A stretch of DNA of 64,000 nucleotides from Enterobacteria phage phiC600P9: the sequence record MZ681930.1; one strand, written 5' to 3'. Both the position numbers and the translations under genes were made by a program. The stretch's first letter is position 1; every line of letters begins with the position of its first letter. Below are positions 3,324 to 60,351 of the stretch, piece after piece. A model generated the notes under the pieces. The model was not told the origin of the DNA. It did not search any database and saw only the letters and a program-made list of their open reading frames with translations.

Positions 3324-3748
3324 TGCTTCTGATCCCTGAAACTCATGAATTAGTTCTCGAGAATGTCGAAGCACTTATTCCTGAAGCACAGGGTCGCTTT
3401 GACGAATTGTCTTCTGCTTTAAATAAAGACGATATAAATACAATTGTCGAGAATATGCTTGATGATGAAACTGATTTAGCAGTTGCATTAGCTTCTATTA
3501 ATGAAAATATGCCGTTAAATGAATTCATTGTTAAGCACGTTTCAGCTCGTGGTGAAATTACACGTACTAAAGACCGCAAAACACGCGAACGTAATGCATT
3601 TCAAACCACTGGGCTGTCTAAAGCAAAACGTAGACAAATTGCTCGCAAAGCTACCAAAACGAAGATTGCCAATCCAGCAGGTCAATCTCGTGCTCAGCGT
3701 AAGCGTAAAAAAGCTCTTAAACGCCGTAAAGCATTAGGATTAAGCTAA
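3323..3748 (+). CDS. 68: Prohead core protein gp68
   Basis: 141-aa ORF with basic C-terminus, position between 67 and 21 as in T4. Confidence 0.85.
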
Positions 3749-4386
3749 TGAATGAACCCCAATTACTAATTGAAACTTGGGGTCAACCTGGCGAAATTAT
3801 TGATGGTGTGCCAATGCTTGAATCCCACGATGGAAAAGACTTAGGTTTAAAACCGGGTCTATACATCGAAGGAATATTCATGCAAGCAGAAGTCGTCAAT
3901 AGAAATAAACGTCTTTATCCAAAACGCATATTAGAAAAAGCGGTAAAAGACTATATTAATGAGCAAGTTTTAACTAAACAAGCTCTCGGAGAATTAAATC
4001 ATCCTCCACGCGCTAATGTTGACCCGATGCAAGCCGCTATCATTATAGAAGATATGTGGTGGAAAGGAAATGACGTATACGGACGAGCTCGTGTTATTGA
4101 AGGTGACCACGGTCCTGGAGATAAATTAGCAGCTAATATTCGTGCCGGATGGATTCCAGGAGTTTCTTCTCGTGGATTAGGTTCATTGACTGACACAAAT
4201 AAAGGTTATCGTATCGTAAACGAAGGATTCAAATTAACTGTAGGTGTTGATGCAGTATGGGGTCCAAGTGCTCCAGATGCATGGGTAACTCCTAAGGAAA
4301 TTACCGAATCACAGACGGCGGAAGCCGATACAAGTGCCGATGACGCCTATATGGCTCTCGCAGAGGCCATGAAAAAAGCGTTATAA
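3748..4386 (+). CDS. 21: Prohead core scaffold protein and protease gp21
   Basis: 212-aa ORF, same length and position as T4 gp21. Confidence 0.9.
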   Translation: MNEPQLLIETWGQPGEIIDGVPMLESHDGKDLGLKPGLYIEGIFMQAEVVNRNKRLYPKRILEKAVKDYINEQVLTKQALGELNHPPRANVDPMQAAIIIEDMWWKGNDVYGRARVIEGDHGPGDKLAANIRAGWIPGVSSRGLGSLTDTNKGYRIVNEGFKLTVGVDAVWGPSAPDAWVTPKEITESQTAEADTSADDAYMALAEAMKKAL

Positions 4387-4389
4387 ATA
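4382..4389 (+). promoter_or_regulatory. Late promoter TATAAATA upstream of gene 22
   Basis: Exact TATAAATA overlapping the gene 21 stop region, about 28 nt upstream of the gene 22 ATG. Confidence 0.55.
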
Positions 4390-4416
4390 TTATTATCTAA
4401 ACAACAGGACTACAAA

Positions 4417-5226
4417 ATGCTTAAAGAACAACTGATTGCTGAAGCGCAAAAAATTGATGCTTCCGTTGCTCTTGATAGTATTTTCGAATCAGTTAATATT
4501 TCTCCGGAAGCAAAAGAAACTTTCGGCACTGTATTCGAAGCTACCGTCAAGCAGCACGCCGTTAAATTAGCTGAATCTCATATCGCTAAAATTGCTGAAA
4601 AAGCAGAAGAAGAAGTAGAAAAAAATAAAGAAGAAGCCGAAGAAAAAGCTGAGAAGAAAATCGCTGAGCAAGCTTCTAAATTCATCGACCATCTTGCGAA
4701 AGAATGGCTCGCCGAAAATAAATTAGCAGTTGATAAAGGCATCAAAGCCGAACTGTTTGAATCCATGCTTGGTGGATTAAAAGAGCTCTTTGTTGAACAC
4801 AACGTTGTTGTTCCAGAAGAATCAGTTGATGTTGTGGCTGAAATGGAAGAAGAGCTGCAAGAACATAAAGAAGAATCAGCTCGTCTGTTCGAAGAACTCA
4901 ATATGCGCGACGCATATATCAATTATGTGCAGCGTGAAGTGGCATTGAGCGAAAGTACTAAAGATCTGACTGAGTCTCAAAAAGAAAAAGTCTCTGCTCT
5001 GGTCGAAGGTATGGATTATTCAGATGCATTCTCAAGTAAATTGAGCGCAATCGTAGAAATGGTGAAGAAATCTAATAAAGATGAAAGCACTATTACTGAG
5101 GGTATAAATACTCCTGATACTGAAGCAGCCGGACTGAATTTCGTCACTGAAGCTGTAGAAGATAAAGCTGCACAGGGTGCAGAAGATATTGTAAGTGTAT
5201 ATGCGAAAGTCGCATCTCGTTTCTAA
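4417..5226 (+). CDS. 22: Prohead core scaffolding protein gp22
   Basis: 269-aa ORF, acidic and coiled-coil rich (EEEVEKNKEEAEEKAEKK), same length as T4 gp22. Confidence 0.9.
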   Translation: MLKEQLIAEAQKIDASVALDSIFESVNISPEAKETFGTVFEATVKQHAVKLAESHIAKIAEKAEEEVEKNKEEAEEKAEKKIAEQASKFIDHLAKEWLAENKLAVDKGIKAELFESMLGGLKELFVEHNVVVPEESVDVVAEMEEELQEHKEESARLFEELNMRDAYINYVQREVALSESTKDLTESQKEKVSALVEGMDYSDAFSSKLSAIVEMVKKSNKDESTITEGINTPDTEAAGLNFVTEAVEDKAAQGAEDIVSVYAKVASRF

Positions 5227-5244
5227 TTTTAAAGGTTAACACAA

Positions 5245-6810
5245 ATGACTATCAAAACTAAAGCTGAACTTTTGAACAAATGGAAGCCATTACTGGAAGG
5301 TGAAGGTTTACCGGAAATTGCTAATAGCAAACAAGCGATTATCGCTAAAATCTTTGAAAACCAGGAAAAAGATTTCCAGACAGCTCCGGAATATAAAGAC
5401 GAAAAAATTGCTCAGGCATTCGGTTCTTTCTTAACAGAAGCTGAAATCGGTGGTGACCACGGTTACAATGCTACCAACATCGCTGCAGGTCAGACTTCTG
5501 GCGCAGTAACTCAGATTGGCCCAGCTGTTATGGGTATGGTACGTCGTGCTATTCCTAACCTGATTGCTTTCGATATTTGTGGTGTTCAGCCGATGAACAG
5601 CCCGACCGGTCAGGTATTCGCACTGCGCGCAGTATATGGTAAAGACCCAATTGCTTCCGGTGCTAAAGAAGCATTCCACCCAATGTATGGTCCAGATGCA
5701 ATGTTCTCTGGTCAGGGTGCTGCTAAGAAATTCACAGCTCTGGCTGCTAGCACACAAACCGTTGTAGGTGATATCTATACTCACTTCTTCCAGGAAACTG
5801 GTACTGTGTATCTGCAAGCTTCCGCTGTAGTAACAATTAGTTCAAGCGCAACTGATGCAGATAAATTAGATGCTGAAATTAAGAAACAAATGGAAGCTGG
5901 TGCACTGGTAGAAATCGCTGAAGGTATGGCTACTTCTATCGCTGAACTCCAGGAAGGTTTCAACGGTTCTACCGATAACCCATGGAATGAAATGGGCTTC
6001 CGTATCGATAAACAAGTTATCGAAGCTAAATCTCGCCAGCTGAAAGCTGCTTACTCTATTGAATTAGCACAAGACCTCCGCGCTGTTCACGGTATGGATG
6101 CTGATGCTGAACTGTCTGGTATTCTGGCTACAGAAATCATGCTGGAAATCAACCGTGAAGTTGTTGATTGGATTAACTACTCAGCTCAGGTTGGTAAATC
6201 TGGTATGACCCTGACTCCAGGTTCTAAAGCTGGTGTATTTGACTTCCAGGATCCGATTGATATTCGTGGTGCTCGCTGGGCGGGTGAATCCTTTAAAGCT
6301 CTGTTGTTCCAGATTGACAAAGAAGCAGTTGAAATTGCTCGTCAGACTGGTCGTGGTGAAGGTAACTTCATTATCGCTTCCCGTAACGTAGTTAACGTTC
6401 TGGCTTCAGTTGATACCGGCATTTCTTATGCTGCACAAGGTCTGGCTACCGGCTTTAACACTGATACTACCAAGTCAGTATTTGCTGGCGTTCTGGGTGG
6501 TAAATACCGTGTATATATCGACCAGTATGCTAAACAGGATTATTTCACTGTAGGTTATAAAGGTCCGAACGAAATGGATGCTGGTATTTACTACGCTCCA
6601 TATGTAGCTCTGACTCCGCTGCGTGGTTCCGATCCGAAGAACTTCCAACCAGTAATGGGATTCAAAACTCGTTACGGTATCGGTATCAACCCATTTGCAG
6701 AATCCGCTGCTCAGGCTCCGGCTTCTCGCATCCAGAGCGGTATGCCTTCTATTCTGAATAGCCTTGGTAAAAACGCTTACTTCCGCCGTGTATATGTTAA
6801 AGGTATCTAA
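5245..6810 (+). CDS. 23: Major capsid protein gp23
   Basis: 521-aa ORF beginning MTIKTKAELLNKWKPLLEGEGLPEIANSKQAIIAKIFENQ, recognised as the T4 gp23 sequence. Confidence 0.97.
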   Translation: MTIKTKAELLNKWKPLLEGEGLPEIANSKQAIIAKIFENQEKDFQTAPEYKDEKIAQAFGSFLTEAEIGGDHGYNATNIAAGQTSGAVTQIGPAVMGMVRRAIPNLIAFDICGVQPMNSPTGQVFALRAVYGKDPIASGAKEAFHPMYGPDAMFSGQGAAKKFTALAASTQTVVGDIYTHFFQETGTVYLQASAVVTISSSATDADKLDAEIKKQMEAGALVEIAEGMATSIAELQEGFNGSTDNPWNEMGFRIDKQVIEAKSRQLKAAYSIELAQDLRAVHGMDADAELSGILATEIMLEINREVVDWINYSAQVGKSGMTLTPGSKAGVFDFQDPIDIRGARWAGESFKALLFQIDKEAVEIARQTGRGEGNFIIASRNVVNVLASVDTGISYAAQGLATGFNTDTTKSVFAGVLGGKYRVYIDQYAKQDYFTVGYKGPNEMDAGIYYAPYVALTPLRGSDPKNFQPVMGFKTRYGIGINPFAESAAQAPASRIQSGMPSILNSLGKNAYFRRVYVKGI

Positions 6811-6823
6811 TCTTTGACGATTT

Positions 6824-6855
6824 AAGGGACCTTCGGGTCCCTTTAGTTGTTTTTA
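6824..6855 (+). terminator. Rho-independent terminator after gene 23
   Basis: Hairpin agggacc-ttcg-ggtccct followed by a T-rich tract (ttagttgttttt). Confidence 0.75.
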
Positions 6856-6858
6856 TGG

Positions 6859-6866
6859 TATAAATA
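6859..6866 (+). promoter_or_regulatory. Late promoter TATAAATA upstream of gene 24
   Basis: Exact TATAAATA between the gene 23 terminator and the gene 24 ATG. Confidence 0.6.
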
Positions 6867-6893
6867 AATCATATAAACCAAAAGGAAAGCGCA

Positions 6894-10930: not shown

Positions 10931-11611
10931 TTATTTTAATGTTACGAAAGAAGAATTGCGTGTTTCACGAATTAGAACTGATCCGTCACGATTAATGTAG
11001 TAAATTAAGCTAAATAAAGTTTGGTGTGCTGACGCATGCTCAAAACTGGTTGGGTGAGATTTCCAATCCGGAGTTTCAGCAATCCACTGGTAAATCCACC
11101 AAGGAACAGTGCAGAATCCTGGATTTTTTCCAATCAGCTGAAGATTCGGACTAAAGTTTTCCGGAAGAGTAAATACAGACGGCTTTTCAGATTCAATAAT
11201 CTCAGCTATAGCCTGTTCGAATTTTTCTTCAACAAAAGGAGTATCTTCAATCAAAACATCGGTATTTTCGGGAATTTTATCCGTTTCTACTACTTCAATT
11301 TTAATATCAGATTTAACCGGAGAATCAATTAGAAGTGCTGCTTCTGGATTGACTTCTTCATCGTCATATTTTAACCCCTCTGCGGCATCAGCAGCATTGA
11401 TTAAGTCTTTAATAGATAACCCATCAGTCTCTGGCATAGGTTCACTAGCGAGCTTCTGGAGGGCTTCTTCAATATCAACAACGATATTATCAAAAGATTT
11501 ATTCTTTTTGACCTTTATACCAAACTGTTCAGCATATTCAGCTAATTTAGCCTTAGCTTCTTTATTATCATCAAGAGCCTTCAGCTCTGCAATATAATCT
11601 TTATCTATCAT
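10931..11611 (-). CDS. inh: Inh, inhibitor of prohead protease gp21
   Basis: 226-aa ORF downstream of hoc, same length and position as T4 inh. Confidence 0.8.
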   Translation of the reverse strand: MIDKDYIAELKALDDNKEAKAKLAEYAEQFGIKVKKNKSFDNIVVDIEEALQKLASEPMPETDGLSIKDLINAADAAEGLKYDDEEVNPEAALLIDSPVKSDIKIEVVETDKIPENTDVLIEDTPFVEEKFEQAIAEIIESEKPSVFTLPENFSPNLQLIGKNPGFCTVPWWIYQWIAETPDWKSHPTSFEHASAHQTLFSLIYYINRDGSVLIRETRNSSFVTLK

Positions 11612-16046: not shown

Positions 16047-16058
16047 TATTTATAAATA
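16047..16058. promoter_or_regulatory. Overlapping divergent late promoters (TATAAATA on both strands) for gene 26 and gene 51
   Basis: tatttataaata contains TATAAATA on the plus strand (16051-16058) and on the minus strand (16047-16054), between divergent late genes. Confidence 0.6.
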
Positions 16059-21350: not shown

Positions 21351-22315
21351 TGTATTCTTTAGAGGAATTTAATAATCAAGCAATAAACGCAGATTTCCAA
21401 CGTAATAATATGTTTAGCTGCGTTTTTGCAACAACTCCATCAACTAAAAGCTCTTCGTTGATAAGTTCAATTAGCAACTTTTCTTATAATAACTTGGGCC
21501 TAAATTCAAATTGGTTAGGATTAACTCAAGGTGATATTAATCAGGGAATTACCACGCTAATTACAGCTGGCACACAAAAACTGATAAGAAAATCAGGGGT
21601 TAGTAAATATCTTATTGGTGCCATGAGTCAACGTACAGTTCAAAGTTTATTAGGCTCATTTACAGTTGGTACATATTTAATTGACTTCTTTAACATGGCA
21701 TATAACTCATCTGGATTGATGATATATTCTGTAAAAATGCCAGAGAATAGATTATCCTATGAAACTGACTGGAACTATAATTCTCCTAATATTCGTATAA
21801 CTGGAAGAGAATTAGACCCTTTGGTTATTTCATTTAGAATGGATTCAGAAGCTTGTAACTATCGTGCAATGCAAGACTGGGTTAACTCTGTTCAAGACCC
21901 AGTAACTGGACTGCGTGCTTTGCCGCAAGATGTCGAGGCAGATATTCAGGTTAATCTTCATTCTCGCAATGGATTGCCTCATACTGCGGTGATGTTCACC
22001 GGATGCATTCCAATATCAGTGAGCGCTCCTGAGCTATCATATGATGGAGATAACCAAATAACTACATTTGATGTTACTTTTGCGTATAGAGTCATGCAGG
22101 CTGGAGCAGTTGATAGACAAGCTGCGCTTGAGTGGCTTGAATCTGCTGCTATAAATGGCATTCAAAGCGTTCTCGGAAATAGTGGAGGTGTTACTGGACT
22201 ATCTAATTCGCTTTCACGACTTAGTAGATTAGGAGGAACTGCTGGAAGCATTTCAAACATTAATACTATGACAGGAATTGTCAATTCGCAAAGTAAAATA
22301 TTAGGAGCAATATAA
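21350..22315 (+). CDS. 54: Baseplate tail tube initiator gp54
   Basis: 321-aa ORF at the position of T4 gp54. Confidence 0.88.
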   Translation: MYSLEEFNNQAINADFQRNNMFSCVFATTPSTKSSSLISSISNFSYNNLGLNSNWLGLTQGDINQGITTLITAGTQKLIRKSGVSKYLIGAMSQRTVQSLLGSFTVGTYLIDFFNMAYNSSGLMIYSVKMPENRLSYETDWNYNSPNIRITGRELDPLVISFRMDSEACNYRAMQDWVNSVQDPVTGLRALPQDVEADIQVNLHSRNGLPHTAVMFTGCIPISVSAPELSYDGDNQITTFDVTFAYRVMQAGAVDRQAALEWLESAAINGIQSVLGNSGGVTGLSNSLSRLSRLGGTAGSISNINTMTGIVNSQSKILGAI

Positions 22316-22317
22316 CA

Positions 22318-22350
22318 ATGGGGACCTTTCGGTCCCCATATTTTTATTTG
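22318..22350. terminator. Bidirectional terminator after gene 54
   Basis: Hairpin ggggacc-tttc-ggtcccc followed by atatttttattt. Confidence 0.7.
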
Positions 22351-22634
22351 CGGAATGAAATGAAAGCAGAAACTGAAGCAACTAAACTGTCTTCAATATA
22401 AACTTCAATTTTTACCGGAGCTTCTGACTCAAATTTACCTGTTACTACACCCTGAAAAATACTTTCAGTCTGTTCTGGCTTTGAAAAATTTTCAGAAGGA
22501 AAAATTCCGAACTTTTTATCTGTTCCAAAAATTTTAATAAATTCATCGTAAACCGCTTCGTTAAAAGCATTATCAGCAGGAATAACGCCTTCAACTACAA
22601 GTTCTTGACCTAAAAAGCGTAAAGAAGATTTCAT
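22344..22634 (-). CDS. Hypothetical early protein (T4 alt.-3 position)
   Basis: 96-aa ORF immediately downstream of a sigma70-type early promoter and a GAGGA SD. Confidence 0.6.
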   Translation of the reverse strand: MKSSLRFLGQELVVEGVIPADNAFNEAVYDEFIKIFGTDKKFGIFPSENFSKPEQTESIFQGVVTGKFESEAPVKIEVYIEDSLVASVSAFISFRK

Positions 22635-22640
22635 TTTGTG

Positions 22641-22700
22641 TTCCTCATGTTATGTCAGTAAGACTATTATAACACAACATAAGGAACTTGTAAACTACAT
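22641..22700 (-). promoter_or_regulatory. Early promoter cassette (GTTTACA, 17 nt spacer, TGtTATAATA) overlapping an imperfect inverted repeat
   Basis: Minus strand reads GTTTACAagttccttatgttgTGtTATAATAgtcttactgacataacatGAGGAacacaaaATG; the inverted repeat cctcatgtt/aacataagg flanks the -10. About 85 percent identical to the element at 38071-38130. Confidence 0.65.
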
Positions 22701-24752
22701 TTTGAACTTTTTAGACATTCCGTTAATGTTAACCAAAGAAGCTAAGATTTGAGAAACTTCGTTTTCCTCTTCTTTTGATTCTTCTACAAGGAATTGATTA
22801 AATCCAGCCATTGGACGAACTTCACCAGTTTCCATTAAATGGTCTCCATCATATACTGATTCTTCTAATTGTTCAGAAGGAGGAACGATTGCACCTTCGA
22901 TTAGATACTTGTTATAAGCAGTTTCTTTCATAAAGTACGTACTTACTTTATTAATCTTCAGTAAAATTCCACGCGGTAGAATAACTTCAGCTTCTGATGG
23001 AAATCCTGTTAAATGACCTGGAACGATAACTTTGATTCGCTCAGCTCCTTTAATTACCATACCCACTCTAGTTTCAGCATTTTCATTAGCGTATGTAGAA
23101 TGACTACCCATATGCATCAAATCTTCTGCATCAACGGAACCTTCTCCTTCACCAGAAAATACTGCGCCGGAATCATCTAAAGCCATATAGTTTTTACCAT
23201 GCTCGCCGAAGATATTTGGTTTAAGCGATGTAGATACGAAGTTCTTGAAATAGAACATTTTGTTTTCAATGTTATGACGCAAAGTTTTAAAGGTAACTTC
23301 TTGTCCACGGTAAAGTGTAGTTCCTGGAGGAAGAACTGAACCTTTAGCAAATGCAGAATCCAACGTCTCGATGTGTTTAATAGCTCGTTCCATATATTCT
23401 TCGCGGGTAGAATCAGGTTTACCCAAAAGGAACGAGTTCATTTCAACATATGAATCTGCACAATAATCTTCAATTACATCAGATTCAGCTTGAGTTAATC
23501 CTTTTGGAGTTACTTCGGTGCTTGCGTATTCATATGCCTGGGCAGCAGATTCATTAATCAATTTATAAATGCCATTCATTACAAATTGAATAATAGCTGT
23601 CTTTTCATCTGGCGTAGCTTTAGAACCTTTAACCAAATCATTGATAATTTTCTTAATAACATCAAAGCTATTAGAAATATTAATATCAGCAAGATCGCTT
23701 AAAATTTTATCAGTTTTATAATCAAAGAATTCTTTATTCTTTAAATATTCTTGAGAACCTTGATATGTTATATCGCTCTGCAACTTGATGGATGGATCAC
23801 GTAAACGTGCATGGGCTAATGCAATATGATTTCGGAAGTTTTCTAGTTCATAATCGCTAGATTTAAAACGAGAAGCACTTCTCATACCACCGATAGCTCC
23901 TTTGCTGAAGTTTGAACCAATCTGAATAACGCCAGAGTTCATTGGTCCTTCTGCTTTATATACCGGAACTTTAGATTCAAACTCTTGATATTTCTTGGCA
24001 GCGAAGCTATCACCCTGAAGTGAAGCATCAACAGTAGAATATTGAGCTTGTGCTGCTAATCGACGACTAATTTTAGTTTTCTGAATAACAGCTTGGTCCG
24101 TGCGCTTATCATTTTCTAAAGCAATAGAAGCAGCAACAGCGACAGCTTTAGGAACAGCATTACCTGTTTTAACGTCTACATAAACATCACCAACCTTTGA
24201 TTCAACTTTTGTGAATAACTCAGTTGAAATAGGAGGTACACCTGGAATGTCTTCTAAATTGGCATTTTTACGGTAAACCATAATATATGCATACTTTTTA
24301 TCATAGTCCCAGATTTCCTTTAAAAGAACATATCGACCTGCTCCTTTAGTACGTACTAAACGGTCAGCAATAACTTGCATTTGACGAGCAGCGCCATTTG
24401 TTTTACTCTTTAGTACACGGAATAAGCACGCGTCAATTTTATACTGTTTCATTGTTTGAAGAGCAGTATCAAAAACAGCATTAATGACGCCAATTGGATT
24501 TCCACCCAAGTTTCTAAGCTTAACCAGTGATAATTTCTCATTAACACCTATCATTACGATATGCATCATTTTATCGCCCGGCTTAACGTTTTTATTCGTA
24601 TCACCGCCAGAGGTGTATGTACAAAATCTAAATCCAGGAAGCACGCTTTCTTCGCCGGCTTGAATAGCAAAAATTTGTGGTATTTTATGCTTAGGATTTA
24701 AGTTAACAACCGGCGCCGAAGCGCCGTCAAATAATTCTGTAATAAGTTCCAT
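22695..24752 (-). CDS. Alt-like ADP-ribosyltransferase paralogue
   Basis: 685-aa ORF whose first ~230 aa are about 75 percent identical to the adjacent Alt; the C-terminal domain carries R/S-T-S/E-x-E ART motifs (LYRGQ, FVSTSL, SEAEVILPRG). Confidence 0.75.
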   Translation of the reverse strand: MELITELFDGASAPVVNLNPKHKIPQIFAIQAGEESVLPGFRFCTYTSGGDTNKNVKPGDKMMHIVMIGVNEKLSLVKLRNLGGNPIGVINAVFDTALQTMKQYKIDACLFRVLKSKTNGAARQMQVIADRLVRTKGAGRYVLLKEIWDYDKKYAYIMVYRKNANLEDIPGVPPISTELFTKVESKVGDVYVDVKTGNAVPKAVAVAASIALENDKRTDQAVIQKTKISRRLAAQAQYSTVDASLQGDSFAAKKYQEFESKVPVYKAEGPMNSGVIQIGSNFSKGAIGGMRSASRFKSSDYELENFRNHIALAHARLRDPSIKLQSDITYQGSQEYLKNKEFFDYKTDKILSDLADINISNSFDVIKKIINDLVKGSKATPDEKTAIIQFVMNGIYKLINESAAQAYEYASTEVTPKGLTQAESDVIEDYCADSYVEMNSFLLGKPDSTREEYMERAIKHIETLDSAFAKGSVLPPGTTLYRGQEVTFKTLRHNIENKMFYFKNFVSTSLKPNIFGEHGKNYMALDDSGAVFSGEGEGSVDAEDLMHMGSHSTYANENAETRVGMVIKGAERIKVIVPGHLTGFPSEAEVILPRGILLKINKVSTYFMKETAYNKYLIEGAIVPPSEQLEESVYDGDHLMETGEVRPMAGFNQFLVEESKEEENEVSQILASLVNINGMSKKFKM

Positions 24753-24755
24753 GAT

Positions 24756-26807
24756 TTATCCTTGAACGAACTTGTAAGGCATGTTTGCAATATCTATGCA
24801 AGACGCAATAATTCCAAGAGATGATTCTACTTTCTGTTTAACATTTGATGAAACAAATGATGCAAAGTCAACTCTATCTTCTATATCACCTGTCATTGTA
24901 ACCAATTCACCAGTTTCCATTAAATGGTCTCCGTCATAGATTACCGATTCGGTGAGCTCTTCCGTGGTCATAACTTCAGCTTGAATAAGCTTGTTGTTAG
25001 TTTTAACTGTTCCATCATTGTAAGATGCATCGGTTATTTTATTAACTTTGACCATTAATCCACGTGGCAAAATGACTTCCATTTCATTTGAAGGCGCTAA
25101 ACTTCCACCGGGTAAAACAACATTGACCTTATCAGCCCCAGTAATAACCCATCCAATTCCAACTAAATTATCGCTAGAATTTACTAGTCCTTCATCAGTT
25201 TTATCAATAGAAACACTTAGACGCTTTTCGTCTGGTAAAACACCTATAGATGAATCAGTCATCCAAGTACCAAAAATATTTGGATATAATGATGTTGACA
25301 CAAAGTTTCTAAAATAAAAAACTCGATTTTTTACCAATGCTTCATATATTGAAGGTAACATTCGCTGTGAACGATATAAAGTAATACCTTTTGGCAATCG
25401 ATCGCCATTTTTAAAGGCTGAATCTAAATTATCGATGGCTTGTTCTATTTCGGGTGCTGTCAAAATACTTGTACGCTCATCTGGATTATATAATCCCAAA
25501 AGAGCATTATTCATGTCTACATATCCTGAACCCACATATTCACGAATTCCGCGTTTTTGAGCCGGTGTGTATTTAGATGAATCTTTATTTTCGACTATAG
25601 AATGCAATGACCATCCAACGGTAAGAGCATATCCACGTAATTCTCTTCGAATAATCTTTGTTTTTATTGCATTCCAAGAATTTTGCACTAACTCATTTGC
25701 AGCATCTTGATTTAAATGCGAATGCTTGTTAATATTTCTTTCTAACCAAGCACTTTTATATTTTTCTAAAGTATCATCGACTATAGAAGCAATAGTTTCT
25801 AAAGTTTTTATTGAAGTAATAGATTCTTTTCGTAATCTTTCTAAAGCTTTATTTTTTATTTCTGCATTAACATCAGATTCTTTATCTTCAGGAATTATAG
25901 AAGCTTCTCTGAATGCCATCCCAGCTGTAACACTATTAAGAGCATTCTCTAGTGCAAATCCTGAAGTAGAAATTACCGTTAATTCATTAGAATCAGAAAT
26001 TAAAGGCGCGTCCGCTGGTTTATTTAATTCTGCCGCTGAAGCCTCAAATTTTTGAAACATCGGTGTTTCAAATCTAGAAGATTCCAATGACTGACTTTGT
26101 GCAATTGCTCTACGGGAAATTTTAACTTTAACGATTACAGCTTGGTCAGAACGTTTATCGTTTTCTTGCGCAATAGATGCTGCAATTGCCTCATTTTTAG
26201 TTACTTGAGCTCCAGTATCTTTATTGATATAAACATCACCGACCTTCGATTCAACTTTAGTAAAGAGCTCGGTACTAATTTCCGGAACTCCTGGAATGTC
26301 TTCTAGTGATACATTTTTGCGATGTATAAGAATATATGCATACTTTTTATCATAATCCCAGAGTTCCTTAAGAAGGACGTATCTGCCACCTGAACGACTA
26401 CGGATAAGTCTATCAGCAATAACTTGAATTTGTCGAGCTTGACCAGCGGTTTTAGACTTAAGAATACGAAGCATGCAGGCATCAATTTTATACTGGCGCA
26501 TTGTTTGCATTGCAACAGTAAAAACTGAATTGATATAATTAATTGGGCTTGGACCAAGACCTTTCAATTTAGCAATTGAACCTTTAGCAGTTAATGTAAA
26601 AGGAACAATGTGCATCATTTTATCGCCCATCTTTAAATCACGATTAGTATCACCTCCAGATGTATAGGTACATAAACGAAAGCCTGGTTGTTCAATTGCG
26701 TCATCAACATGAACTGAAAAAATTTGTGGTATTTTCTTCTTTGGATTTAAGTTTGTAATCGGAAGAGTAGTATCTTCGTCAAATAATTCTGTAATTAGTT
26801 CCATCAT
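24756..26807 (-). CDS. alt: Alt ADP-ribosyltransferase (virion-packaged, modifies host RNA polymerase)
   Basis: 683-aa ORF (682 from the second Met) beginning MELITELFDEDTTLPITNL, with ART motifs LYRSQ, FVSTSL, NEMEVILPRG; matches T4 Alt as recalled. Confidence 0.88.
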   Translation of the reverse strand: MMELITELFDEDTTLPITNLNPKKKIPQIFSVHVDDAIEQPGFRLCTYTSGGDTNRDLKMGDKMMHIVPFTLTAKGSIAKLKGLGPSPINYINSVFTVAMQTMRQYKIDACMLRILKSKTAGQARQIQVIADRLIRSRSGGRYVLLKELWDYDKKYAYILIHRKNVSLEDIPGVPEISTELFTKVESKVGDVYINKDTGAQVTKNEAIAASIAQENDKRSDQAVIVKVKISRRAIAQSQSLESSRFETPMFQKFEASAAELNKPADAPLISDSNELTVISTSGFALENALNSVTAGMAFREASIIPEDKESDVNAEIKNKALERLRKESITSIKTLETIASIVDDTLEKYKSAWLERNINKHSHLNQDAANELVQNSWNAIKTKIIRRELRGYALTVGWSLHSIVENKDSSKYTPAQKRGIREYVGSGYVDMNNALLGLYNPDERTSILTAPEIEQAIDNLDSAFKNGDRLPKGITLYRSQRMLPSIYEALVKNRVFYFRNFVSTSLYPNIFGTWMTDSSIGVLPDEKRLSVSIDKTDEGLVNSSDNLVGIGWVITGADKVNVVLPGGSLAPSNEMEVILPRGLMVKVNKITDASYNDGTVKTNNKLIQAEVMTTEELTESVIYDGDHLMETGELVTMTGDIEDRVDFASFVSSNVKQKVESSLGIIASCIDIANMPYKFVQG

Positions 26808-26827
26808 ATCCTCTCTAGTGTTTATTC

Positions 26828-26835
26828 TATTTATA
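26828..26835 (-). promoter_or_regulatory. Late promoter TATAAATA upstream of alt
   Basis: Minus-strand TATAAATA about 20 nt upstream of the alt ATG, consistent with late expression of a packaged protein. Confidence 0.55.
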
Positions 26836-26856
26836 AAATTAAAGGCCCGAAGGCCT

Positions 26857-27045
26857 TTAATAATCTATAGGTAAGAGAGTACGATATATTTCAAACTTTG
26901 GACCTTTTTCATAAGCATCAAATGTTTCTGTAAATTTATTATAAGCGTATGCATCTACAAATTCGAGAATGACTTGTGATACAGAAGTAGAAACATCTCC
27001 ACCTTCTTTTTGAGCCACGACAATTGTTTCTAAGTAAGCTTTCAT
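26857..27045 (-). CDS. Hypothetical small protein between gene 30 and alt
   Basis: 62-aa ORF whose start overlaps the gene 30 stop. Confidence 0.5.
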   Translation of the reverse strand: MKAYLETIVVAQKEGGDVSTSVSQVILEFVDAYAYNKFTETFDAYEKGPKFEIYRTLLPIDY

Positions 27046-28505
27046 AGACCAGTTACCTCATGAAAATCGCCAAATACATCTTCGAACGTATTAGCTTTAG
27101 TTTTATCTTCACGTAAACGAATCGCAATCGGAAGAAATAATTTAACGTAATCAGTGCGGCCATCAGATTTTAACCAACCATTGCATTCGCACTCTAGAAT
27201 TTTTCCAATATAATAATTTTGGTTTTCCATAATGCGAGTACGGTCAAGTTCATGCGATTTTACACCGGCTTTATCTTTTAAGCCTGAACCAGCATTTACC
27301 TTAATTTTTCCACACTCTGACTCAAGAATAAATCCACCTGCTTTAGTAGGGTCTTTACGGTGAGGATAAATTCCTACAATTTTTAAATCAACATCAATTA
27401 CTTCTTTAAATTTATAGAGATTTTTTGAACGAGCATTTTCCCATAATCCATCGATATTTTTGAGAATAATACCTTCAAGACCTTGGTCAATATACTTTTT
27501 ATAAATTACCTTAGCTTCATCTAGGTTATTTACTACCTGGTTTTCAATTAAAATTACTTTATCATATCCTGATGTCATTTGTTCTAGTTTAGAAAAACGT
27601 ACATCATATTTTAAACGAAACGCCGGAAGACCGTATATTTCTACCAACGGGACATAATCCCAGACCTGAAACTTCATACATTGAGCTTCTTTTTCAGAAA
27701 TGGTTCCTTTTAAGGATTTATTGGCGATTCCATTAGAAGTAGTACGAGATTCCGCTACTTCGGCGAATTCTTTAGCTTTACTAATTTCAGGATAAGCATC
27801 AAAAAGAAAATCTAGTCCTTCTGGTTCCTTTTTAACTTGCTCATGGTATACCAATTCGCCATCAATTAACACACCTTCTGGATGAATCTGGCGGGCTTCA
27901 GCAGTCATTTTGATTAATTCTTCCTTAAGAAGATCTAATCCTAGATATTCATTACCAGCTCGTGATAAAAGACGAACATCATCTAATTCATCACCTCGGA
28001 CTTCAGCAAAACACCGAGCTCCATCTGCTTTTAACTGTGCAAAAGCTGGAAACTTGATATTCTTACTAATGCCTTTTTCATCATAAGAACTTGCCAGCAT
28101 TTGAGGTTGTTCAGGAATTAAACCTGGCCAAACTTTGTTTGCAATAGATACTGAAGCACCGCATTCAAGGTCTCGCATCATAACTCGACGCAAAACTTCA
28201 ACATCATCCTTTTTACCATCGGTGATATATCCAGTCAATTCCTCAATTGCAGCATTTCCAGTCAATTTCCGAGTAGCTAACGTGAATTCAATGAAGTCAA
28301 GCATATCGGTAATGGTCAGCATTCCAAAACTCTGGGTAGCAATACCAGGTTTAGGCCATTTCTTGATATAATACTGCAACCCACGAGAATAAGTCAGACG
28401 ATATACTCGTTTAAGCAATTCATTATCTTTATTCTTTTCAAGAATTGCTTGCTTCTGCTTAGTTGAACCAATAGATGCTATTTCATTCAGAATTTTAAGA
28501 ATCAT
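27042..28505 (-). CDS. 30: ATP-dependent DNA ligase gp30
   Basis: 487-aa ORF with the adenylation motif KADGAR, matching the T4 DNA ligase length. Confidence 0.95.
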   Translation of the reverse strand: MILKILNEIASIGSTKQKQAILEKNKDNELLKRVYRLTYSRGLQYYIKKWPKPGIATQSFGMLTITDMLDFIEFTLATRKLTGNAAIEELTGYITDGKKDDVEVLRRVMMRDLECGASVSIANKVWPGLIPEQPQMLASSYDEKGISKNIKFPAFAQLKADGARCFAEVRGDELDDVRLLSRAGNEYLGLDLLKEELIKMTAEARQIHPEGVLIDGELVYHEQVKKEPEGLDFLFDAYPEISKAKEFAEVAESRTTSNGIANKSLKGTISEKEAQCMKFQVWDYVPLVEIYGLPAFRLKYDVRFSKLEQMTSGYDKVILIENQVVNNLDEAKVIYKKYIDQGLEGIILKNIDGLWENARSKNLYKFKEVIDVDLKIVGIYPHRKDPTKAGGFILESECGKIKVNAGSGLKDKAGVKSHELDRTRIMENQNYYIGKILECECNGWLKSDGRTDYVKLFLPIAIRLREDKTKANTFEDVFGDFHEVTGL

Positions 28506-31863: not shown

Positions 31864-32261
31864 TATAAATTCTCTTTTAAATGAAAATGCAGGACTTATT
31901 GGCATTGCCTGCGCAAGCCCTCACGGGGAACATAGGTTTTTGAATATTTAACGACCAGGATAACCATAAACCCGTCATCATACCTTATAGCTCTTATCTG
32001 TTGCACACCGTTAGCTTAAAGGTTCCGGGTTCGATTTCTCGAGGATAAGATATATACTGATGGATATATAGGCCTTGAGGCGTACTCCCGATTGGCCATC
32101 ACCTCGGGGTAGCATGCACTTGCCGCTATAAGAATAACATTCAAGAGGTACACCGTAAAACTGCCGGGGTCTTAAAACTATAATGATTCGCAAATCATTA
32201 ATCAGACAGTTCGACGGCTCCTCGATTTTAGCTCACACTAAGGCAGTGAATCTCCAATAAA

Positions 32262-35285: not shown

Positions 35286-36696
<1,411 letters not shown>

Positions 36697-39746: not shown

Positions 39747-40925
39747 TTAAAAGTATTTTTTAAAACTCATCATAACTTTATCATCAACATCATTATCAAT
39801 TTGTGCGACAAGATAAGAACTGATTTCAACTTCCTGAGGAGCTGCTTGAACTAAATCGGAGTTCAGATATTCACGAATCCAAGGATACGGATGCTTGGTC
39901 GGAGCATCAGTGATTGGGCATGGCAAACCACACTGTTTCATACGAGACACAGTCAAGTAATCAACAAAAGCACACATACTCTGCGTATTGATACCTGGAC
40001 ATGTACCGTCTTTAAAGAGGTGTGCAGCCCATTCCTTCTCTTGTCTATTTACTTCCATAAAAATGTTAACTGCTTCTTGTTCACATTCTTTAGCAATTTG
40101 AACCCACTCATCACCATCAGTACCAGATTGAAGTTGACGGATAATGTACTGAGTACCCTTGAGGTGGAGTTGTTCGTCACGAGCAATGAACTTCATAATC
40201 TTTGCATTGCCTTCCATAATTTCCATATTTTTATGGAAGTTAAAGGTACATGCAAATGATACGTAAAAACGAATAGCTTCCAAGGCGTTAATTACATGAA
40301 GGCAAAGATAAAGAGATTTCATTAGCTCACGCTTCCAATATGTCTCATGCTCAATAGCATCTTCAATAACGTCTTCGTCTGCATTAATTTCTTTTTGGTA
40401 TTCGATATCAGCTTTAGCGTTTTCCCAATAACGAGTTTTAACCAGAACATCATCGTAATATTTACCTATTGATTCAGCTCGTTTCATGATTGCTTCGTCT
40501 AATACAATCTCATCAAATACTTTGGATGGATCAGTATAAAGATTTCGCATAATATGAGTATACGAACGAGAGTGAATAGTTTCACTGAATGTCCATGTTG
40601 CAACCCATGTATCTAATGAAGGGTCAGAAATCAGTGCCATAAGTACCGCAGACGGGGCCCTGCCTTGGATAGAATCTAATAATGATTGATACTTAAGATT
40701 GTTTGTAAAGATGTCCTGTTGGAACTGAGGAAGCTTATTGAACTGCGCAGAGTCCAACATCAAGTTTACCTCTTCTGGGCGCCAAAAAAATGATAATTGC
40801 TTTTCGGTCAAATCTTCAAAAACTTTATGGCGTTGAATATCATAACGCGCAATACCAAGACCAGAACCAAAGAACATCGGTTCATTCAAAACATCGACTT
40901 GTTGTGTGTTAAAAACTGTACTCAT
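39747..40925 (-). CDS. nrdB: Ribonucleotide reductase small subunit NrdB (continuous ORF)
   Basis: 392-aa uninterrupted ORF at the nrdB position; no interruption of the kind the T4 group I intron would produce. Confidence 0.92.
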   Translation of the reverse strand: MSTVFNTQQVDVLNEPMFFGSGLGIARYDIQRHKVFEDLTEKQLSFFWRPEEVNLMLDSAQFNKLPQFQQDIFTNNLKYQSLLDSIQGRAPSAVLMALISDPSLDTWVATWTFSETIHSRSYTHIMRNLYTDPSKVFDEIVLDEAIMKRAESIGKYYDDVLVKTRYWENAKADIEYQKEINADEDVIEDAIEHETYWKRELMKSLYLCLHVINALEAIRFYVSFACTFNFHKNMEIMEGNAKIMKFIARDEQLHLKGTQYIIRQLQSGTDGDEWVQIAKECEQEAVNIFMEVNRQEKEWAAHLFKDGTCPGINTQSMCAFVDYLTVSRMKQCGLPCPITDAPTKHPYPWIREYLNSDLVQAAPQEVEISSYLVAQIDNDVDDKVMMSFKKYF

Positions 40926-40978
40926 TATATTTTCTCACTTAGTTTAACTCATCCATGAGTAAATTATAATAAAAAGTC

Positions 40979-43234
40979 TTAAAGCTTACAAGCAGAACAA
41001 TCTTCAGCTTTAGGTGTTTCTAATTCATAGTCATCTGTACCTGACCCATCACGAGTGTTATGATAGTAGAGGTTTTTTCCGCCAAAGTACCAGAAGTAAA
41101 GTAGATCGTCAAGCATTACTGACATTGGCACTTTACCTTTCTCAAATACTGCAGGGTCATAGTAAGTATTAGCAGAAGCAGATTGGCACACCCATTTCAA
41201 CATGATAGCAACTTGAGTCAAATAAGGTTTATTACCTTTCTTAGCAAGTTTCCACGCGTAGTCGTAAAGACTCATGTTATGTTCTATATTAGGAACAACC
41301 TGACGGAAGTTTCCTTCTTTAGATTCTTTAATACTTACCGGACCGCGCGGTGGCTCAATCCCGTTTGTAGAGTTTGATACTTGACTGCTTGACTCGCAAG
41401 GCATGAGTGCAGACAACGTTGAGTTACGAATTCCATGTTCTTTGAGTTCAGCTCGAAGTTCTTCCCAGTCACAGACGTAGTTCGGGGCTGCAATTTGGTC
41501 AATCTTTTTATTGTACCAGTCGATAGGTAATTCGCCTCTAGACCATTTAGTGTCTGAATAATACTCACAAGGTCCTTTTTCTTTGGAGAGTTTGATTGAA
41601 GCTTTGATAAGGCCATATTGCAATCTCTCAAACAATTCATGAGTCAAATCGTTAGCGTCTTCATATGAAGCAAAGTTAGAAGCTAACCATGCAGCATAGT
41701 TCGTAACACCAATACCCAAGTTACGACGCTTTTTAGCTTTTAAAGCTTCTGGAACCGGATAATCTTGATAGTCTAACAGGTTATCAAGTGCACGTACTTG
41801 TACTTCAGCAAGTTCATTAATTTTATCTTGGTCTTGCCAATCAAATTTATCTAATACAAAAGCAGATAATGTGCATAAACCAATTTCAGCATCAGGACCA
41901 TTCACGTCATTAGTCGGAATAGCGATTTCACAACATAAGTTACTCTGACGAATTGGAGCTTTTTCGCGAATAAACGGAGTGTAGTTATTCGTGTTATCAA
42001 CGAATTGTGGATAAATTCGAGCAGTGCCAGAACGTTCAGTCATGAACAATTCAAAGAGTTCTAGTGCTTTGATTCTTTTCTTTCTGATTGTCGGGTCTTT
42101 TTCAGCTTTCTCATAAAGCTCACGGAATTTATCTTGATCTTCAAAGAACGAGTAGTATAGTTCGCCTGACATTTCGTGAGGGCTAAATAAAGTAATATAA
42201 TCATTTTTACCAAGGCGTTCCATCATAAGGTCATTAATCTGAATTCCGTAGTCCATATGTCGAATACGGTTTTCATCCACGCCTTTGTTATTTTTCAGAA
42301 CTAATAGGTTCTCTACTTCTAAGTGCCACATCGGATAATACGCTGTAGCAGCACCACCACGAATACCACCTTGAGAACAAGATTTTACTGCAGTTTGGAA
42401 ATGTTTCCAGAATGGAATAACACCTGTATGTCGAACTTCACCCATACCGATCTTAGAACCTTCTGCACGAAGCATACCAACGTTGATACCGATACCAGCT
42501 CGTTTAGAAATATATTCAATAATTGATGCTGAAGTTTTGTTAATAGATTTTAACGAATCACCTGCTTCAATAACTACACAACTAGAGAACTGGCGAGTCG
42601 GAGTACGAGCACCTGCCATAATTGGGGTAGGCAATGAAACTTGATGAGTAGAAACGGCATCATAAAAACGAATAATATGTTTCAAACGGTCATGAGTTTC
42701 GTCTTGATGTAAGGCCATGCCAATAGCCATGATAGCAAACTGGGGAGTTTCATAAATCTTCCCGGTTGTTTTATCTTTAACTAGATATTTTTCTTTAAGC
42801 TGCATAGCACCAGCATAAGTCAGGTCAAAGTCTCGTTCATGTTTAATCTGTGAATCGAGATAAATGATTTCTTCTGCAGAATATCTAGACAACAACTCAG
42901 GGTCGTATTTGCCTTCATTAACACAATAAGAAATATGGTCGATAAAAGCAGGCGGTTCAAACTGTCCGTATACATCTTTACGGAGTGCAAACATTAGCCC
43001 TTTGGCGGCGACATACTGATAATCAGGTTCTTCGACAGAAATCGAGTTAGCTGCAACTTTAATACAAATCTTCTGGATATCTTTGGTGCTCATCCCATCG
43101 ACAAGATGGGTCTTAATTTCTTCGTACAATTCATATGGGTCAATTTGTGTTCCTTCACATTGCCAAGTTAAGACTTGAATAATTTTCTGTGCATCAAAAT
43201 TTTGGGATACACCACTGCTCTTAGTTACTTGCAT
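40979..43234 (-). CDS. nrdA: Ribonucleotide reductase large subunit NrdA
   Basis: 751-aa ORF with class I RNR catalytic motifs (NLCCEI, C-terminal CSACKL), close to the T4 NrdA length. Confidence 0.95.
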   Translation of the reverse strand: MQVTKSSGVSQNFDAQKIIQVLTWQCEGTQIDPYELYEEIKTHLVDGMSTKDIQKICIKVAANSISVEEPDYQYVAAKGLMFALRKDVYGQFEPPAFIDHISYCVNEGKYDPELLSRYSAEEIIYLDSQIKHERDFDLTYAGAMQLKEKYLVKDKTTGKIYETPQFAIMAIGMALHQDETHDRLKHIIRFYDAVSTHQVSLPTPIMAGARTPTRQFSSCVVIEAGDSLKSINKTSASIIEYISKRAGIGINVGMLRAEGSKIGMGEVRHTGVIPFWKHFQTAVKSCSQGGIRGGAATAYYPMWHLEVENLLVLKNNKGVDENRIRHMDYGIQINDLMMERLGKNDYITLFSPHEMSGELYYSFFEDQDKFRELYEKAEKDPTIRKKRIKALELFELFMTERSGTARIYPQFVDNTNNYTPFIREKAPIRQSNLCCEIAIPTNDVNGPDAEIGLCTLSAFVLDKFDWQDQDKINELAEVQVRALDNLLDYQDYPVPEALKAKKRRNLGIGVTNYAAWLASNFASYEDANDLTHELFERLQYGLIKASIKLSKEKGPCEYYSDTKWSRGELPIDWYNKKIDQIAAPNYVCDWEELRAELKEHGIRNSTLSALMPCESSSQVSNSTNGIEPPRGPVSIKESKEGNFRQVVPNIEHNMSLYDYAWKLAKKGNKPYLTQVAIMLKWVCQSASANTYYDPAVFEKGKVPMSVMLDDLLYFWYFGGKNLYYHNTRDGSGTDDYELETPKAEDCSACKL

Positions 43235-43321
43235 ATAGTCCTCAGTATAGGTTGATAGACATTACTCCAAACGGGATAGTATTTATCCCGTTAATTTATT
43301 ATACACTTTTAAACTGAAGCG

Positions 43322-43576
43322 TTAATTATCCTCAGCAATAATTTCTTCGTATTCTTTAGGTGTCAAGACTGTGATATCGAAATAAACCAATGGTTCTTTT
43401 TCTATACCGTAACCACCACAAAATTCACGATAGTCATAAATTCGTTCGTGTGAATAGCAAATAAATCGTTCACCTTTAACTGTGATTTCACTATTCGGTG
43501 AAGGGATATCCAGTTCGGTAGGATTTTTCATTTCAAAAATTGTGGTGCCATATGAATTAATAAAACGTAAAATCAT
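43322..43576 (-). CDS. Hypothetical protein (nrdA.1-like)
   Basis: 84-aa ORF between td and nrdA. Confidence 0.55.
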   Translation of the reverse strand: MILRFINSYGTTIFEMKNPTELDIPSPNSEITVKGERFICYSHERIYDYREFCGGYGIEKEPLVYFDITVLTPKEYEEIIAEDN

Positions 43577-43577
43577 T

Positions 43578-44438
43578 TTATACCGCCATTTTAGCTTTGA
43601 TAGCTGGATGTGATTCGTAATTTTTAAGAATAAAGTCTTTAGGACGAAGTTTTAATACATATTCGATTTGTTCTTCGGTTGATAGATGTCTAAATTTGTA
43701 TGGTAATCCGTTAATAACTAATTCACATAGTTCTTTAGGCTCACGACGTAAAATTTCTTTGCATTGTTCTACATGATTGCTGTAGATATGCGTGTTGCCG
43801 CCTGAGAACACTAAATCACCTGGGATAAGGTTACACATCTTCGCTACAATATGCGTCAAGGCAGCGTACGAGGCAATGTTGAACGGCAGGCCCAAGAAAA
43901 CATCTACACTGCGTTGATACCATTGTAAATCAAGATGACCATTACGCACATTGAACTGGTAGAACATATGGCAAGGAGGAAGTGCCATTTGATTTATTTC
44001 AGCTGGATTCCAGGCAGAAACAATTTGACGACGATCAGTTGGTAATTTTTTAATACGGTCGATTGTTTCAACTAATTGGTCTACACCGCCGAAATCACGC
44101 CATTGTTTACCATATATAGGACCAAGTTCACCGCTATGGTACCCAAGGTCTTTTGCCTGATTTTCGTAATTATCGTCCCAAATAGTTTTACCTTCAATTA
44201 GACTACCATGGGTACGAAGACGTAATTCGTTAACATTAGTAGAACCGGACATGAACCACAGTAGTTCGGCAATACAAGCTTTCCATGCAAGCTTCTTGGT
44301 TGTTACTGCAGGAAATCCTTTAGTAAGGTCCCATCGCAATTTAGTTCCGAACAGGGCAATAGTGCCGGTACCTGTACGGTCGTCTGTTTCGTAGCCATTT
44401 TCTAAGATATCTTTAATTAGGTATTGGTATTGTTTCAT
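43578..44438 (-). CDS. td: Thymidylate synthase (continuous ORF)
   Basis: 286-aa uninterrupted ORF with the TS active-site region (LPPCH); same length as T4 TS but clearly diverged in sequence from what I recall of T4. Confidence 0.93.
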   Translation of the reverse strand: MKQYQYLIKDILENGYETDDRTGTGTIALFGTKLRWDLTKGFPAVTTKKLAWKACIAELLWFMSGSTNVNELRLRTHGSLIEGKTIWDDNYENQAKDLGYHSGELGPIYGKQWRDFGGVDQLVETIDRIKKLPTDRRQIVSAWNPAEINQMALPPCHMFYQFNVRNGHLDLQWYQRSVDVFLGLPFNIASYAALTHIVAKMCNLIPGDLVFSGGNTHIYSNHVEQCKEILRREPKELCELVINGLPYKFRHLSTEEQIEYVLKLRPKDFILKNYESHPAIKAKMAV

Positions 44439-44482
44439 TTAGTACCTTATATAAATTATAATACATTTTATGAAGCTAATAA

Positions 44483-44830
44483 TTAATACGGTTTAGCATC
44501 AAATTTTCTCTCAATTTCAGGCGTGAAATATAATTCTTTACCGCGTTTGGAAAAGCGACCAATAATATGATAATTATTCTCATCAAACGTGATATTACCA
44601 ATATCCATAGCTTTCAACCAAATATCGATATTTCTATCCAGCTTTATGTCAAAATTCCAATACGGAGAACTATTACCGAAAATACTGCAAGCGGATTCAG
44701 TGAAACAACTGCTATAAATCTTGTCTTTAGGAACTACTAATTGATAGACGCCTTTAATAAACTGAGGACCCTGCCACTTTGGCTGTTTCTCGTCTTTTTC
44801 TAATAGAATAGGGTAATAATTAAAATTCAT
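44483..44830 (-). CDS. Hypothetical protein between frd and td
   Basis: 115-aa ORF (MNFNYYPILLEKDEKQPKWQGPQF...); no recognisable motif. Confidence 0.5.
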   Translation of the reverse strand: MNFNYYPILLEKDEKQPKWQGPQFIKGVYQLVVPKDKIYSSCFTESACSIFGNSSPYWNFDIKLDRNIDIWLKAMDIGNITFDENNYHIIGRFSKRGKELYFTPEIERKFDAKPY

Positions 44831-44849
44831 ATTTCCGCCACGCGTTATT

Positions 44850-47587: not shown

Positions 47588-47650
47588 TTTTATTTCCTTT
47601 TTAATTTAATTAACAGTTGGTGCTATGACGATGTATGACCTCATAGCTGG
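47588..47650 (-). promoter_or_regulatory. Gene 32 translational operator (autoregulatory 5' UTR)
   Basis: Minus strand upstream of the gene 32 ATG reads ...gttaattaaattaaaaaggaaataaaaATG, the A/U-rich unstructured tract recalled from T4; the structured part upstream was not folded here. Confidence 0.6.
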
Positions 47651-47670
47651 TCAGTGAGATAATTATAATC

Positions 47671-47678
47671 TATTTATA
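47671..47678 (-). promoter_or_regulatory. Late promoter TATAAATA upstream of gene 32
   Basis: Minus-strand TATAAATA between the gene 59 stop and the gene 32 leader. Confidence 0.5.
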
Positions 47679-47686
47679 ATAAGCAA

Positions 47687-58781: not shown

Positions 58782-58784
58782 GGA

Positions 58785-58808
58785 GAAGGGACTTCTGTCC
58801 CTTTTTAT
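58785..58808 (+). terminator. Hairpin with T-run after gene 37
   Basis: agggac-ttct-gtccct followed by ttttt. Confidence 0.6.
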
Positions 58809-58811
58809 AAT

Positions 58812-59363: not shown

Positions 59364-59372
59364 GGAGGTATT

Positions 59373-60305: not shown

Positions 60306-60351
60306 AACGTTTTATTCATTCCATTTAGTTGATATGGATATAGTACCAATA

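Follow-up and report, generated by a model that had tools for sequence, protein, structure and literature searches.

Each head of phage T4 packages about 40 copies of the ADP-ribosyltransferase (ART) Alt. The main target of Alt is Arg265 of the RNA polymerase alpha subunit (PMC2988021). Alt is cleaved by the protease gp21 at ITE-6 and LTE-619, as proven by mass spectrometry (PMC5694885). It has also been called a core protein that may serve a structural role, and its E577A mutant is catalytically dead (683-residue numbering; PMC11404850). Overlapping ARTs are found in T4, where Alt and ModA both modify Arg265, and ModA and ModB, which are R-S-E ARTs of the same phage group, are proteins of about 200 amino acids (aa) that are early, not packaged and encoded at a different locus (PMC2988021). 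Iyer et al. placed T4 Alt outside the genuine polyvalent proteins. Partial and full-length duplications of alt in T4-like phages were listed by Nolan et al. (2006; PMC1524935), and a note in the T4 GenBank record traces alt.-1 and alt.-2 to an old duplication covering the first part of alt. Here we analyze a 64,000-nucleotide (nt) stretch of Enterobacteria phage phiC600P9 (MZ681930.1; hereafter the window), in which alt is followed by a second gene of the Alt type, here called Alt2. We propose that Alt2 is probably a functional second capsid-packaged and injected arginine ADP-ribosyltransferase with targets of its own.

The window is a segment of a Tequatrovirus (T4-like) genome and, by its gene order, includes the T4 alt locus: gp29, gp48 and gp54 are found in this order on the plus strand, and alt.-3, Alt2 (685 aa), alt (683 or 682 aa), alt.1 and the DNA ligase gene gp30 on the minus strand (Table 1). 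A nucleotide search with the interval 22300-27100 matched 527 phage records. The first-pass annotation, made from the letters of this DNA, had described two tandem open reading frames 3 nt apart that share their N-terminal ~230 aa and are diverged beyond, that both keep an R / S-T-S / E-x-E signature and that both encode Alt-type ARTs, and the follow-up bore out all of these points. The 3-nt gap lies in a TAA-ATC-ATG junction. The product of the upstream gene, alt, is 97.9% identical to T4 Alt, and the two neighbors are 42% identical to each other (BLASTP, E = 3e-161), with identities, in Alt2 numbering, of 67% over residues 1-236 (the N-module), 27% over residues 237-420 (the middle, for which the value depends on the alignment and ranges from 9 to 27%), 37% over residues 421-632 (the ART domain) and 43% over residues 633-685 (the tail). 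Both proteins exceed the curated Pfam threshold of 23.4 bits for PF03496 (ADPrib_exo_Tox), Alt with 117.2 bits (E 7e-34) and Alt2 with 70.8 bits (E 1e-19), and Alt2 matches PHROG 802 over its full length (E 4e-255). The catalytic signature reads R478, S503-T-S505 and E574-M-E576 in Alt and R482, S507-T-S509 and E587-A-E589 in Alt2. These residues are invariant in a 17-sequence alignment of the Alt family, and closer alignment, a check named with the first-pass annotation, found them intact in Alt2, where E589 is aligned with the T4 Alt glutamate replaced in the E577A mutant. Judged by their sequences, both genes encode full-length Alt-type ARTs with intact catalytic residues. Counted from its first ATG, alt spans 24756..26807 on the minus strand and has 683 aa; since phage ESH35 has no first ATG, translation probably begins at the second one, at 26804 (682 aa).

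Like T4 Alt, Alt2 combines an N-module, a helical middle, an R-S-E ART domain and a C-terminal tail, and it shares with T4 Alt the late transcription unit, the gp21 motifs, PHROG 802 and PF03496. It differs from T4 Alt in the middle, in the ART domain and in the loop preceding E-x-E, which reads GFPSEAE in Alt2 and LAPSNEME in Alt, and is best regarded as a separate effector lineage. In all 11 phages compared, the gene is 2,058 nt long and contains no internal stop; among them the mean ratio of nonsynonymous to synonymous substitution rates (dN/dS) is 0.048, with values of 0.014 for the N-module, 0.090 for the middle, 0.041 for the ART domain and 0.043 for the tail; by these ratios, Alt2 is under strong purifying selection. 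In the AlphaFold model of Alt2 (predicted local distance difference test score, pLDDT, 74.6), an alpha/beta N-domain is followed by a helical middle (block-mean pLDDT about 52-93, mostly >80 past residue 250), an ART domain and a disordered tail. The modeled ART domain matches the arginine-specific R-S-E toxins Vis, C3, Certhrax, CDTa and VIP2 in Foldseek searches (probability 1.0, E 1e-7 to 1e-4), and the model assigns to Alt2 a C3/VIP2-type ART fold. In sequence searches against PDB chains, Alt2 found no match and Alt found weak CdtA matches only. Alt2 might also be a pseudo-enzyme without catalytic activity that is retained for binding or structure. This is highly improbable, given that no catalytic residue is lost or varies and that the ART domain is constrained; nothing specific speaks for it, although a remote family member such as P0183 (see below) has a degenerate catalytic motif, with Lys in place of Arg.

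Vis, C3bot, Certhrax, CDTa, VIP2 and iota-like toxins share the ART fold and the R, STS and ExE motifs with Alt2. The C3-like and binary toxins differ from it in being secreted bacterial proteins of only 15-19% identity that lack the Alt N-module, and the tandem ART folds of binary-toxin enzymatic components (CDTa, Ia, VIP2), in which an adaptor pseudo-ART precedes the active C-terminal ART, are not found in Alt2, as the Alt N-module is no second ART fold. Pfam reports PF03496 only for Alt2, which carries neither a fused MuF domain nor any other known domain of head proteins. The R, S and E-x-E motifs of ModA and ModB can be aligned with those of Alt2; kinship with ModA or ModB was rejected, as the alignment named as a check in the first-pass annotation gave no significant similarity to Alt, T6 Alt or Alt2 (BLASTP E > 0.5). 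By PF03496, catalytic signature, N-module, ART fold, cleavage motifs and locus, Alt2 belongs to the Alt family.

The first-pass annotation had named, correctly, alt.-1, alt.-2 and alt.-3 as the genes annotated in this interval of T4. Alignment to the T4 genes found no full-length equivalent of Alt2 and no characterized T4 product equal to it, only a stump: Alt2 residues 1-56 correspond to T4 Alt.-1 (61 aa) and residues 62-116 to T4 Alt.-2 (67 aa), both at 95-96% identity, as against only 58-62% between these two T4 proteins and Alt. In the nucleotide alignment T4 lacks 1,699 nt of the gene (Table 1), a deletion through which codon ~113 runs out of frame into the last codons, and a further 1 nt from an A-run (gene position 160; 24593 in the window). 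As aligned, alt.-1 and alt.-2 are the same gene as Alt2, sharing its position and its junction to alt but wrecked by two deletions; they are the stump of a complete paralogue, which is more than the GenBank wording implies. The T4 alt / alt.-1 junction (AAGGA, TAA-ATC-ATG) is intact, with alt.-1 at 11266-11451 of the compared T4 stretch, and the 61-aa Alt.-1 stump, possibly also Alt.-2, may therefore still be translated late. The Alt.-1 stump also retains the ITE cleavage motif near its N-terminus.

The segment missing from T4 is found in 401 phage records (90-100% identity, at least 80% coverage), and 772 sequences fall into the Alt2 cluster at 90% identity. The T4 deletion junction is found in 91 records, which include many T4 stocks and also environmental isolates, so that a laboratory artefact was rejected as its origin. 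The tandem pair is present in T2, T6, RB51, PP01, AR1, ime09, SH7 and others, where the second alt gene is an Alt2 orthologue of 94-98% nucleotide identity with the same 685 aa and 3-nt gap and differs in nothing material; the partner Alt is mostly of a 697-aa T6 type, as compared with the 682-aa T4 type of the window. Many records, including RefSeq entries, carry two annotated "Alt-like RNA polymerase ADP-ribosyltransferase" genes. The intact pair is thus the normal state in Tequatrovirus and T4 the degenerate exception, and the pair is already known as an annotated feature, the novelty of which the first-pass annotation had overestimated. As a genomic feature, Alt2 is ordinary. The opposite polarity, with T4 in the ancestral state and Alt2 as a later expansion, was rejected on account of the frameshift and microhomology deletion that T4 carries in a 95-96% identical gene and of the tandem arrays in Dhakavirus and Moonvirus. 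Since T4 lost Alt2 by a microhomology deletion, the gene is dispensable on laboratory hosts. A literature search, with subscription journals outside its coverage, found no functional study of Alt2.

In Dhakavirus (dhabil) and Moonvirus (Merlin), the array is ligase, alt.1, ART, ART, alt.-3 and gp54. The effector core of the downstream paralogue, which in Dhakavirus includes the JS10 "Alt", is closest to that of Alt2: the ART domains are 55% (Dhakavirus) and 49% (Moonvirus) identical, and in the Dhakavirus comparison the middle is 46% and the tail 61% identical, as against 9-18% for the middle, 37% for the ART domain and 44% for the tail between Alt and Alt2 in the same alignment. The dhabil and Merlin paralogues differ from Alt2 in length (707 aa) and in the N-module, which is 46% and 65% identical, respectively. 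The duplication is therefore ancient and predates these genera. N-modules are most alike within one genome (68%, 64% and 60%), whereas those of Tequatrovirus-Dhakavirus positional orthologues are only 46% identical; the N-module thus tracks the phage, which fits a role in the head assembly or ejection of its own phage. Alt itself has two alleles in Tequatrovirus, a T4 type of 682-685 aa (the phiC600P9 window, T4 and AR1) and a T6 type of 697 aa (T2, T6, RB51, PP01 and others, which are most of the phages with the pair). Their identity is 100% over the N-module and 94% over the tail, as against 35% over the middle and 67% over the ART domain, which makes a cassette-like mosaic. The T6-type Alt is 65% and 84% identical to the Dhakavirus upstream gene, the latter value over the ART domain, which suggests exchange of effector-core cassettes.

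That two effector lineages have been kept apart across genera argues for non-redundant targets. The middle and catalytic core of Alt2 form a separate, long-lived lineage, and the target spectrum of Alt2 is therefore most likely unlike that of Alt; a substrate different from that of Alt is plausible. If Alt2 were instead a redundant copy, packaged and injected to act on the same targets as Alt (Arg265 and others) for dose or robustness, its effector core would be expected to homogenize with that of Alt or to decay. The cores are 9-37% identical, each is conserved with its positional orthologue under strong purifying selection, and the substrate-facing loop before E-x-E differs between the two. 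The common architecture, Arg-type E-x-E, promoter and cleavage motifs, the loss of Alt2 from T4 with no known phenotype and the precedent of Alt and ModA on Arg265 are what such redundancy would lead one to expect. On balance we consider it unlikely.

The case for packaging of Alt2 comes from its termini. ITE-6 and LEE-631 of Alt2 are aligned with ITE-6 and LTE-619 of T4 Alt, for which trimming at both sites gives a computed mass of 68.2 kDa, equal to the published one, and gp21-type motifs at these sites are also kept in the Dhakavirus and Moonvirus copies. LEE-631 is followed by an invariant SV(I)YDGDHLMETGE, of which Y634, D635, G636, D637, E641, G643 and E644 are invariant in the 17-sequence alignment, and the Alt2 tail is aligned with the 63-residue C-terminal propeptide cut from T4 Alt. 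Cleaved at both sites, mature Alt2 is predicted to have a mass of 69.2 kDa. From these motifs we infer that Alt2 is packaged, cleaved and injected. Alternatively, Alt2 could be absent from mature virions or not be ejected, and act in the producing cell as a late cytoplasmic enzyme or a component of head-core assembly. In virions of SH7, which carries both genes, mass spectrometry detected the upstream Alt but not Alt2, and Alt itself is called a core protein with a possible structural role, as would be expected if this were so. The SH7 proteome is too shallow to count as absence of Alt2, because it comprises 13 proteins in total, and three features that go with packaging in Alt are conserved in Alt2, namely the LxE propeptide, the C-terminal cleavage motif and the N-module, the last with a dN/dS of 0.014, so that an exclusively intracellular role is in our judgment quite unlikely.

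The pair appears to be arranged for joint expression. A terminator upstream of alt, the conservation of which has been noted before (Nolan et al., 2006; PMC1524935), separates the transcription unit of gene 30, which lies upstream, from the alt genes. The only exact match to the T4 late-promoter consensus, TATAAATA, in the alt-Alt2 interval lies in front of alt, and a scan of the interval found no exact match between or inside alt and Alt2 and no promoter or terminator between them. A Shine-Dalgarno sequence, GAGAGGA, precedes alt at 26809-26815, and Alt2 has its own, AAGGA. The terminator, the rest of the upstream block, the AAGGA and the TAA-ATC-ATG junction are invariant in 10 relatives and T4. 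These signals suggest late expression of alt and Alt2 from one T4 late promoter, and the terminator between gp54 and alt.-3 is likely the 3' end of the late alt-Alt2 transcript.

We propose that late transcription of Alt2 would start, jointly with that of alt, at the single TATAAATA promoter, with a ribosome-binding site of its own for translation; that the N-terminal module and termini of Alt2 would direct it into the prohead core, where the gp21 prohead protease would trim it after E6 and E631; and that it would be ejected into the host together with the DNA, there to mono-ADP-ribosylate arginine residues of host proteins with nicotinamide adenine dinucleotide (NAD+). In this proposal, arginine specificity, expression timing and distinct targets are inferred. 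Several points weigh against it: no direct sign that Alt2 is produced, enters the head, is processed or reaches the host was found; SH7 virions yielded peptides of the upstream Alt only (two); T4 and 90 other records are without an intact Alt2 gene; the case for substrate divergence is drawn from sequence divergence; and the fold of the N-module yields no functional clue.

ModB acts on NAD-capped RNA, and Vis acts on free arginine-like compounds. It is possible, and we put it forward tentatively, that most T-even phages (T2, T6 and ~400 relatives) inject two ARTs, of which Alt2 hits host targets that Alt spares, for example a defense, toxin-antitoxin or translation component neutralized at DNA entry, or perhaps a non-protein acceptor, with the shared N-module as a phage-specific carrier for head targeting and ejection. 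If so, the loss of Alt2 from T4 would add to the differences in host range and defense sensitivity among T-even phages. Nearly all knowledge of phage-injected ADP-ribosylation comes from T4, which is atypical in having lost one enzyme of the injected type. Should Alt2 have targets of its own, the picture of three ARTs (Alt, ModA and ModB) would be incomplete for most of the genus, and comparisons of T2, T4 and T6 against defense systems would carry an uncontrolled variable.

The N-module is confined to Alt-type proteins in a sequence search of 1.84 billion representatives: 69 clusters were found, every one with the module N-terminal and in proteins of 600-710 aa, and the precomputed domain PF26846 (Alt N-terminal module) is on all homologues. 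These 69 clusters leave the N-module as a generic carrier fused to many effector types unsupported at the level of sequence. PF03496 is found in 8 of 10 divergent N-module proteins, and in the two most remote the ART-like half is degenerate. The remotest N-module proteins, metagenomic P0183 (485 aa) and P0184 (541 aa), are 24-27% identical and have no Pfam match; in the ART-like C-half of P0183 the catalytic Arg is replaced by Lys (TTLYKN), and P0183 may therefore be an inactive or re-purposed relative. No informative relative of the N-module was found among solved structures. In Foldseek searches of BFVD, the N-module model (Alt2 residues 1-239; window 24036-24752) matches large proteins of unrelated myoviruses (E 1e-7 to 1e-4, template modeling score, TM, 0.36-0.58), namely those of Erwinia phiEa2809, Dickeya RC-2014, Vibrio VP-1 and Kuja and Agrobacterium Atu_ph07, some of which are annotated with zeta-toxin, deaminase or ParB/Srx domains. 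As a lead only, the modeled fold may be an ancient head-delivery carrier domain.

Table 1. Features of the alt-Alt2 locus and other intervals in the window (coordinates refer to the 64,000-nt stretch).
Feature	Coordinates	Strand	Remarks
alt, T4-type allele	24756..26804	-	682 aa; alternative ATG at 26807 gives 683 aa; PF03496
alt catalytic codons R478; S503-S505; E574-E576	25371-25373; 25290-25298; 25077-25085	-	
alt gp21 sites after E6; after E619	26787-26789; 24948-24950	-	
Variable core of alt	24948-26093	-	T6: 3501-5594 of the compared T6 stretch
Alt2, second Alt-type ADP-ribosyltransferase gene	22695..24752	-	685 aa
Alt2 N-module, aa 1-236	24045..24752	-	Propeptide MELITE; predicted cleavage after E6 (24735-24737)
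Alt2 middle, aa 237-420	23493..24044	-	All-helical; most diverged part
Alt2 ART catalytic domain, aa 421-631	22860..23492	-	PF03496, invariant residues, Foldseek
Alt2 catalytic codons R482; S507-T-S509; E587-A-E589	23307-23309; 23226-23234; 22986-22994	-	
Alt2 predicted gp21 cleavage after L-E-E631	22860-22868	-	Motif
Alt2 C-terminal tail, aa 632-685 and stop	22695..22859	-	Predicted propeptide; starts SVYDGDHLMETGE
Alt2 segment deleted in T4	22715..24413	-	1,699 nt; 9-nt microhomology CTAAARAGT at both bounds
Hairpin terminator upstream of alt	26841..26858	-	AAAGGCC-TTCG-GGCCTTT, then T-rich run; overlaps alt.1 stop
T4-type late promoter consensus	26828..26835	-	TATAAATA; ~20 nt upstream of Alt start
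Early-type sigma-70 promoter	22666..22694	-	TTTACA, 17 nt, TG-TATAAT; 11/12 matches
alt.-3, downstream neighbor	22344..22634	-	96 aa; DUF5498; 99% identical to T4 Alt.-3
Bidirectional hairpin terminator between gp54 and alt.-3	22318..22339		
Mobile-element differences from T4	6821-6879; 40249-40412; 40926-40986; 43216-44845; 47650-47686		

The early-type promoter directly after the Alt2 stop serves alt.-3 and lies outside the ART pair; its -10 element reads TATAAT, TATAGT or TACAAT among relatives. Mutants of T4 Alt.-3 with a C-terminal extension escape the CmdTAC defense system (PMC11618068). Elsewhere in the window, at 16047-16058, two exact copies of the TATAAATA late-promoter consensus overlap on opposite strands and are presumably the divergent late promoters that T4, too, has between genes 26 and 51.

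Compared with T4, the window is missing the mobile elements segD, the nrdB intron with I-TevIII, nrdB.1, mobE and segG. The nrdA.1-td interval is unaligned to T4 and ~0.8 kb shorter, and the td intron with I-TevI is thus probably absent too. Megablast gave no match to the T4 asiA.1-arn.2 region, where ~1 kb is unaligned on each side (60308-61358). Relative to T4, 313 nt are added near the boundary of pseT and pseT.1 (36380-36694) and 155 nt near the T4 30.9-rIII interval (31981-32137). Identity to T4 is only 78-81% in nrdB and nrdA (40412-43216) and only 75-78% in the gp37/gp38/t region (56306-60308), the latter of which indicates a different type of tail-fiber adhesin.

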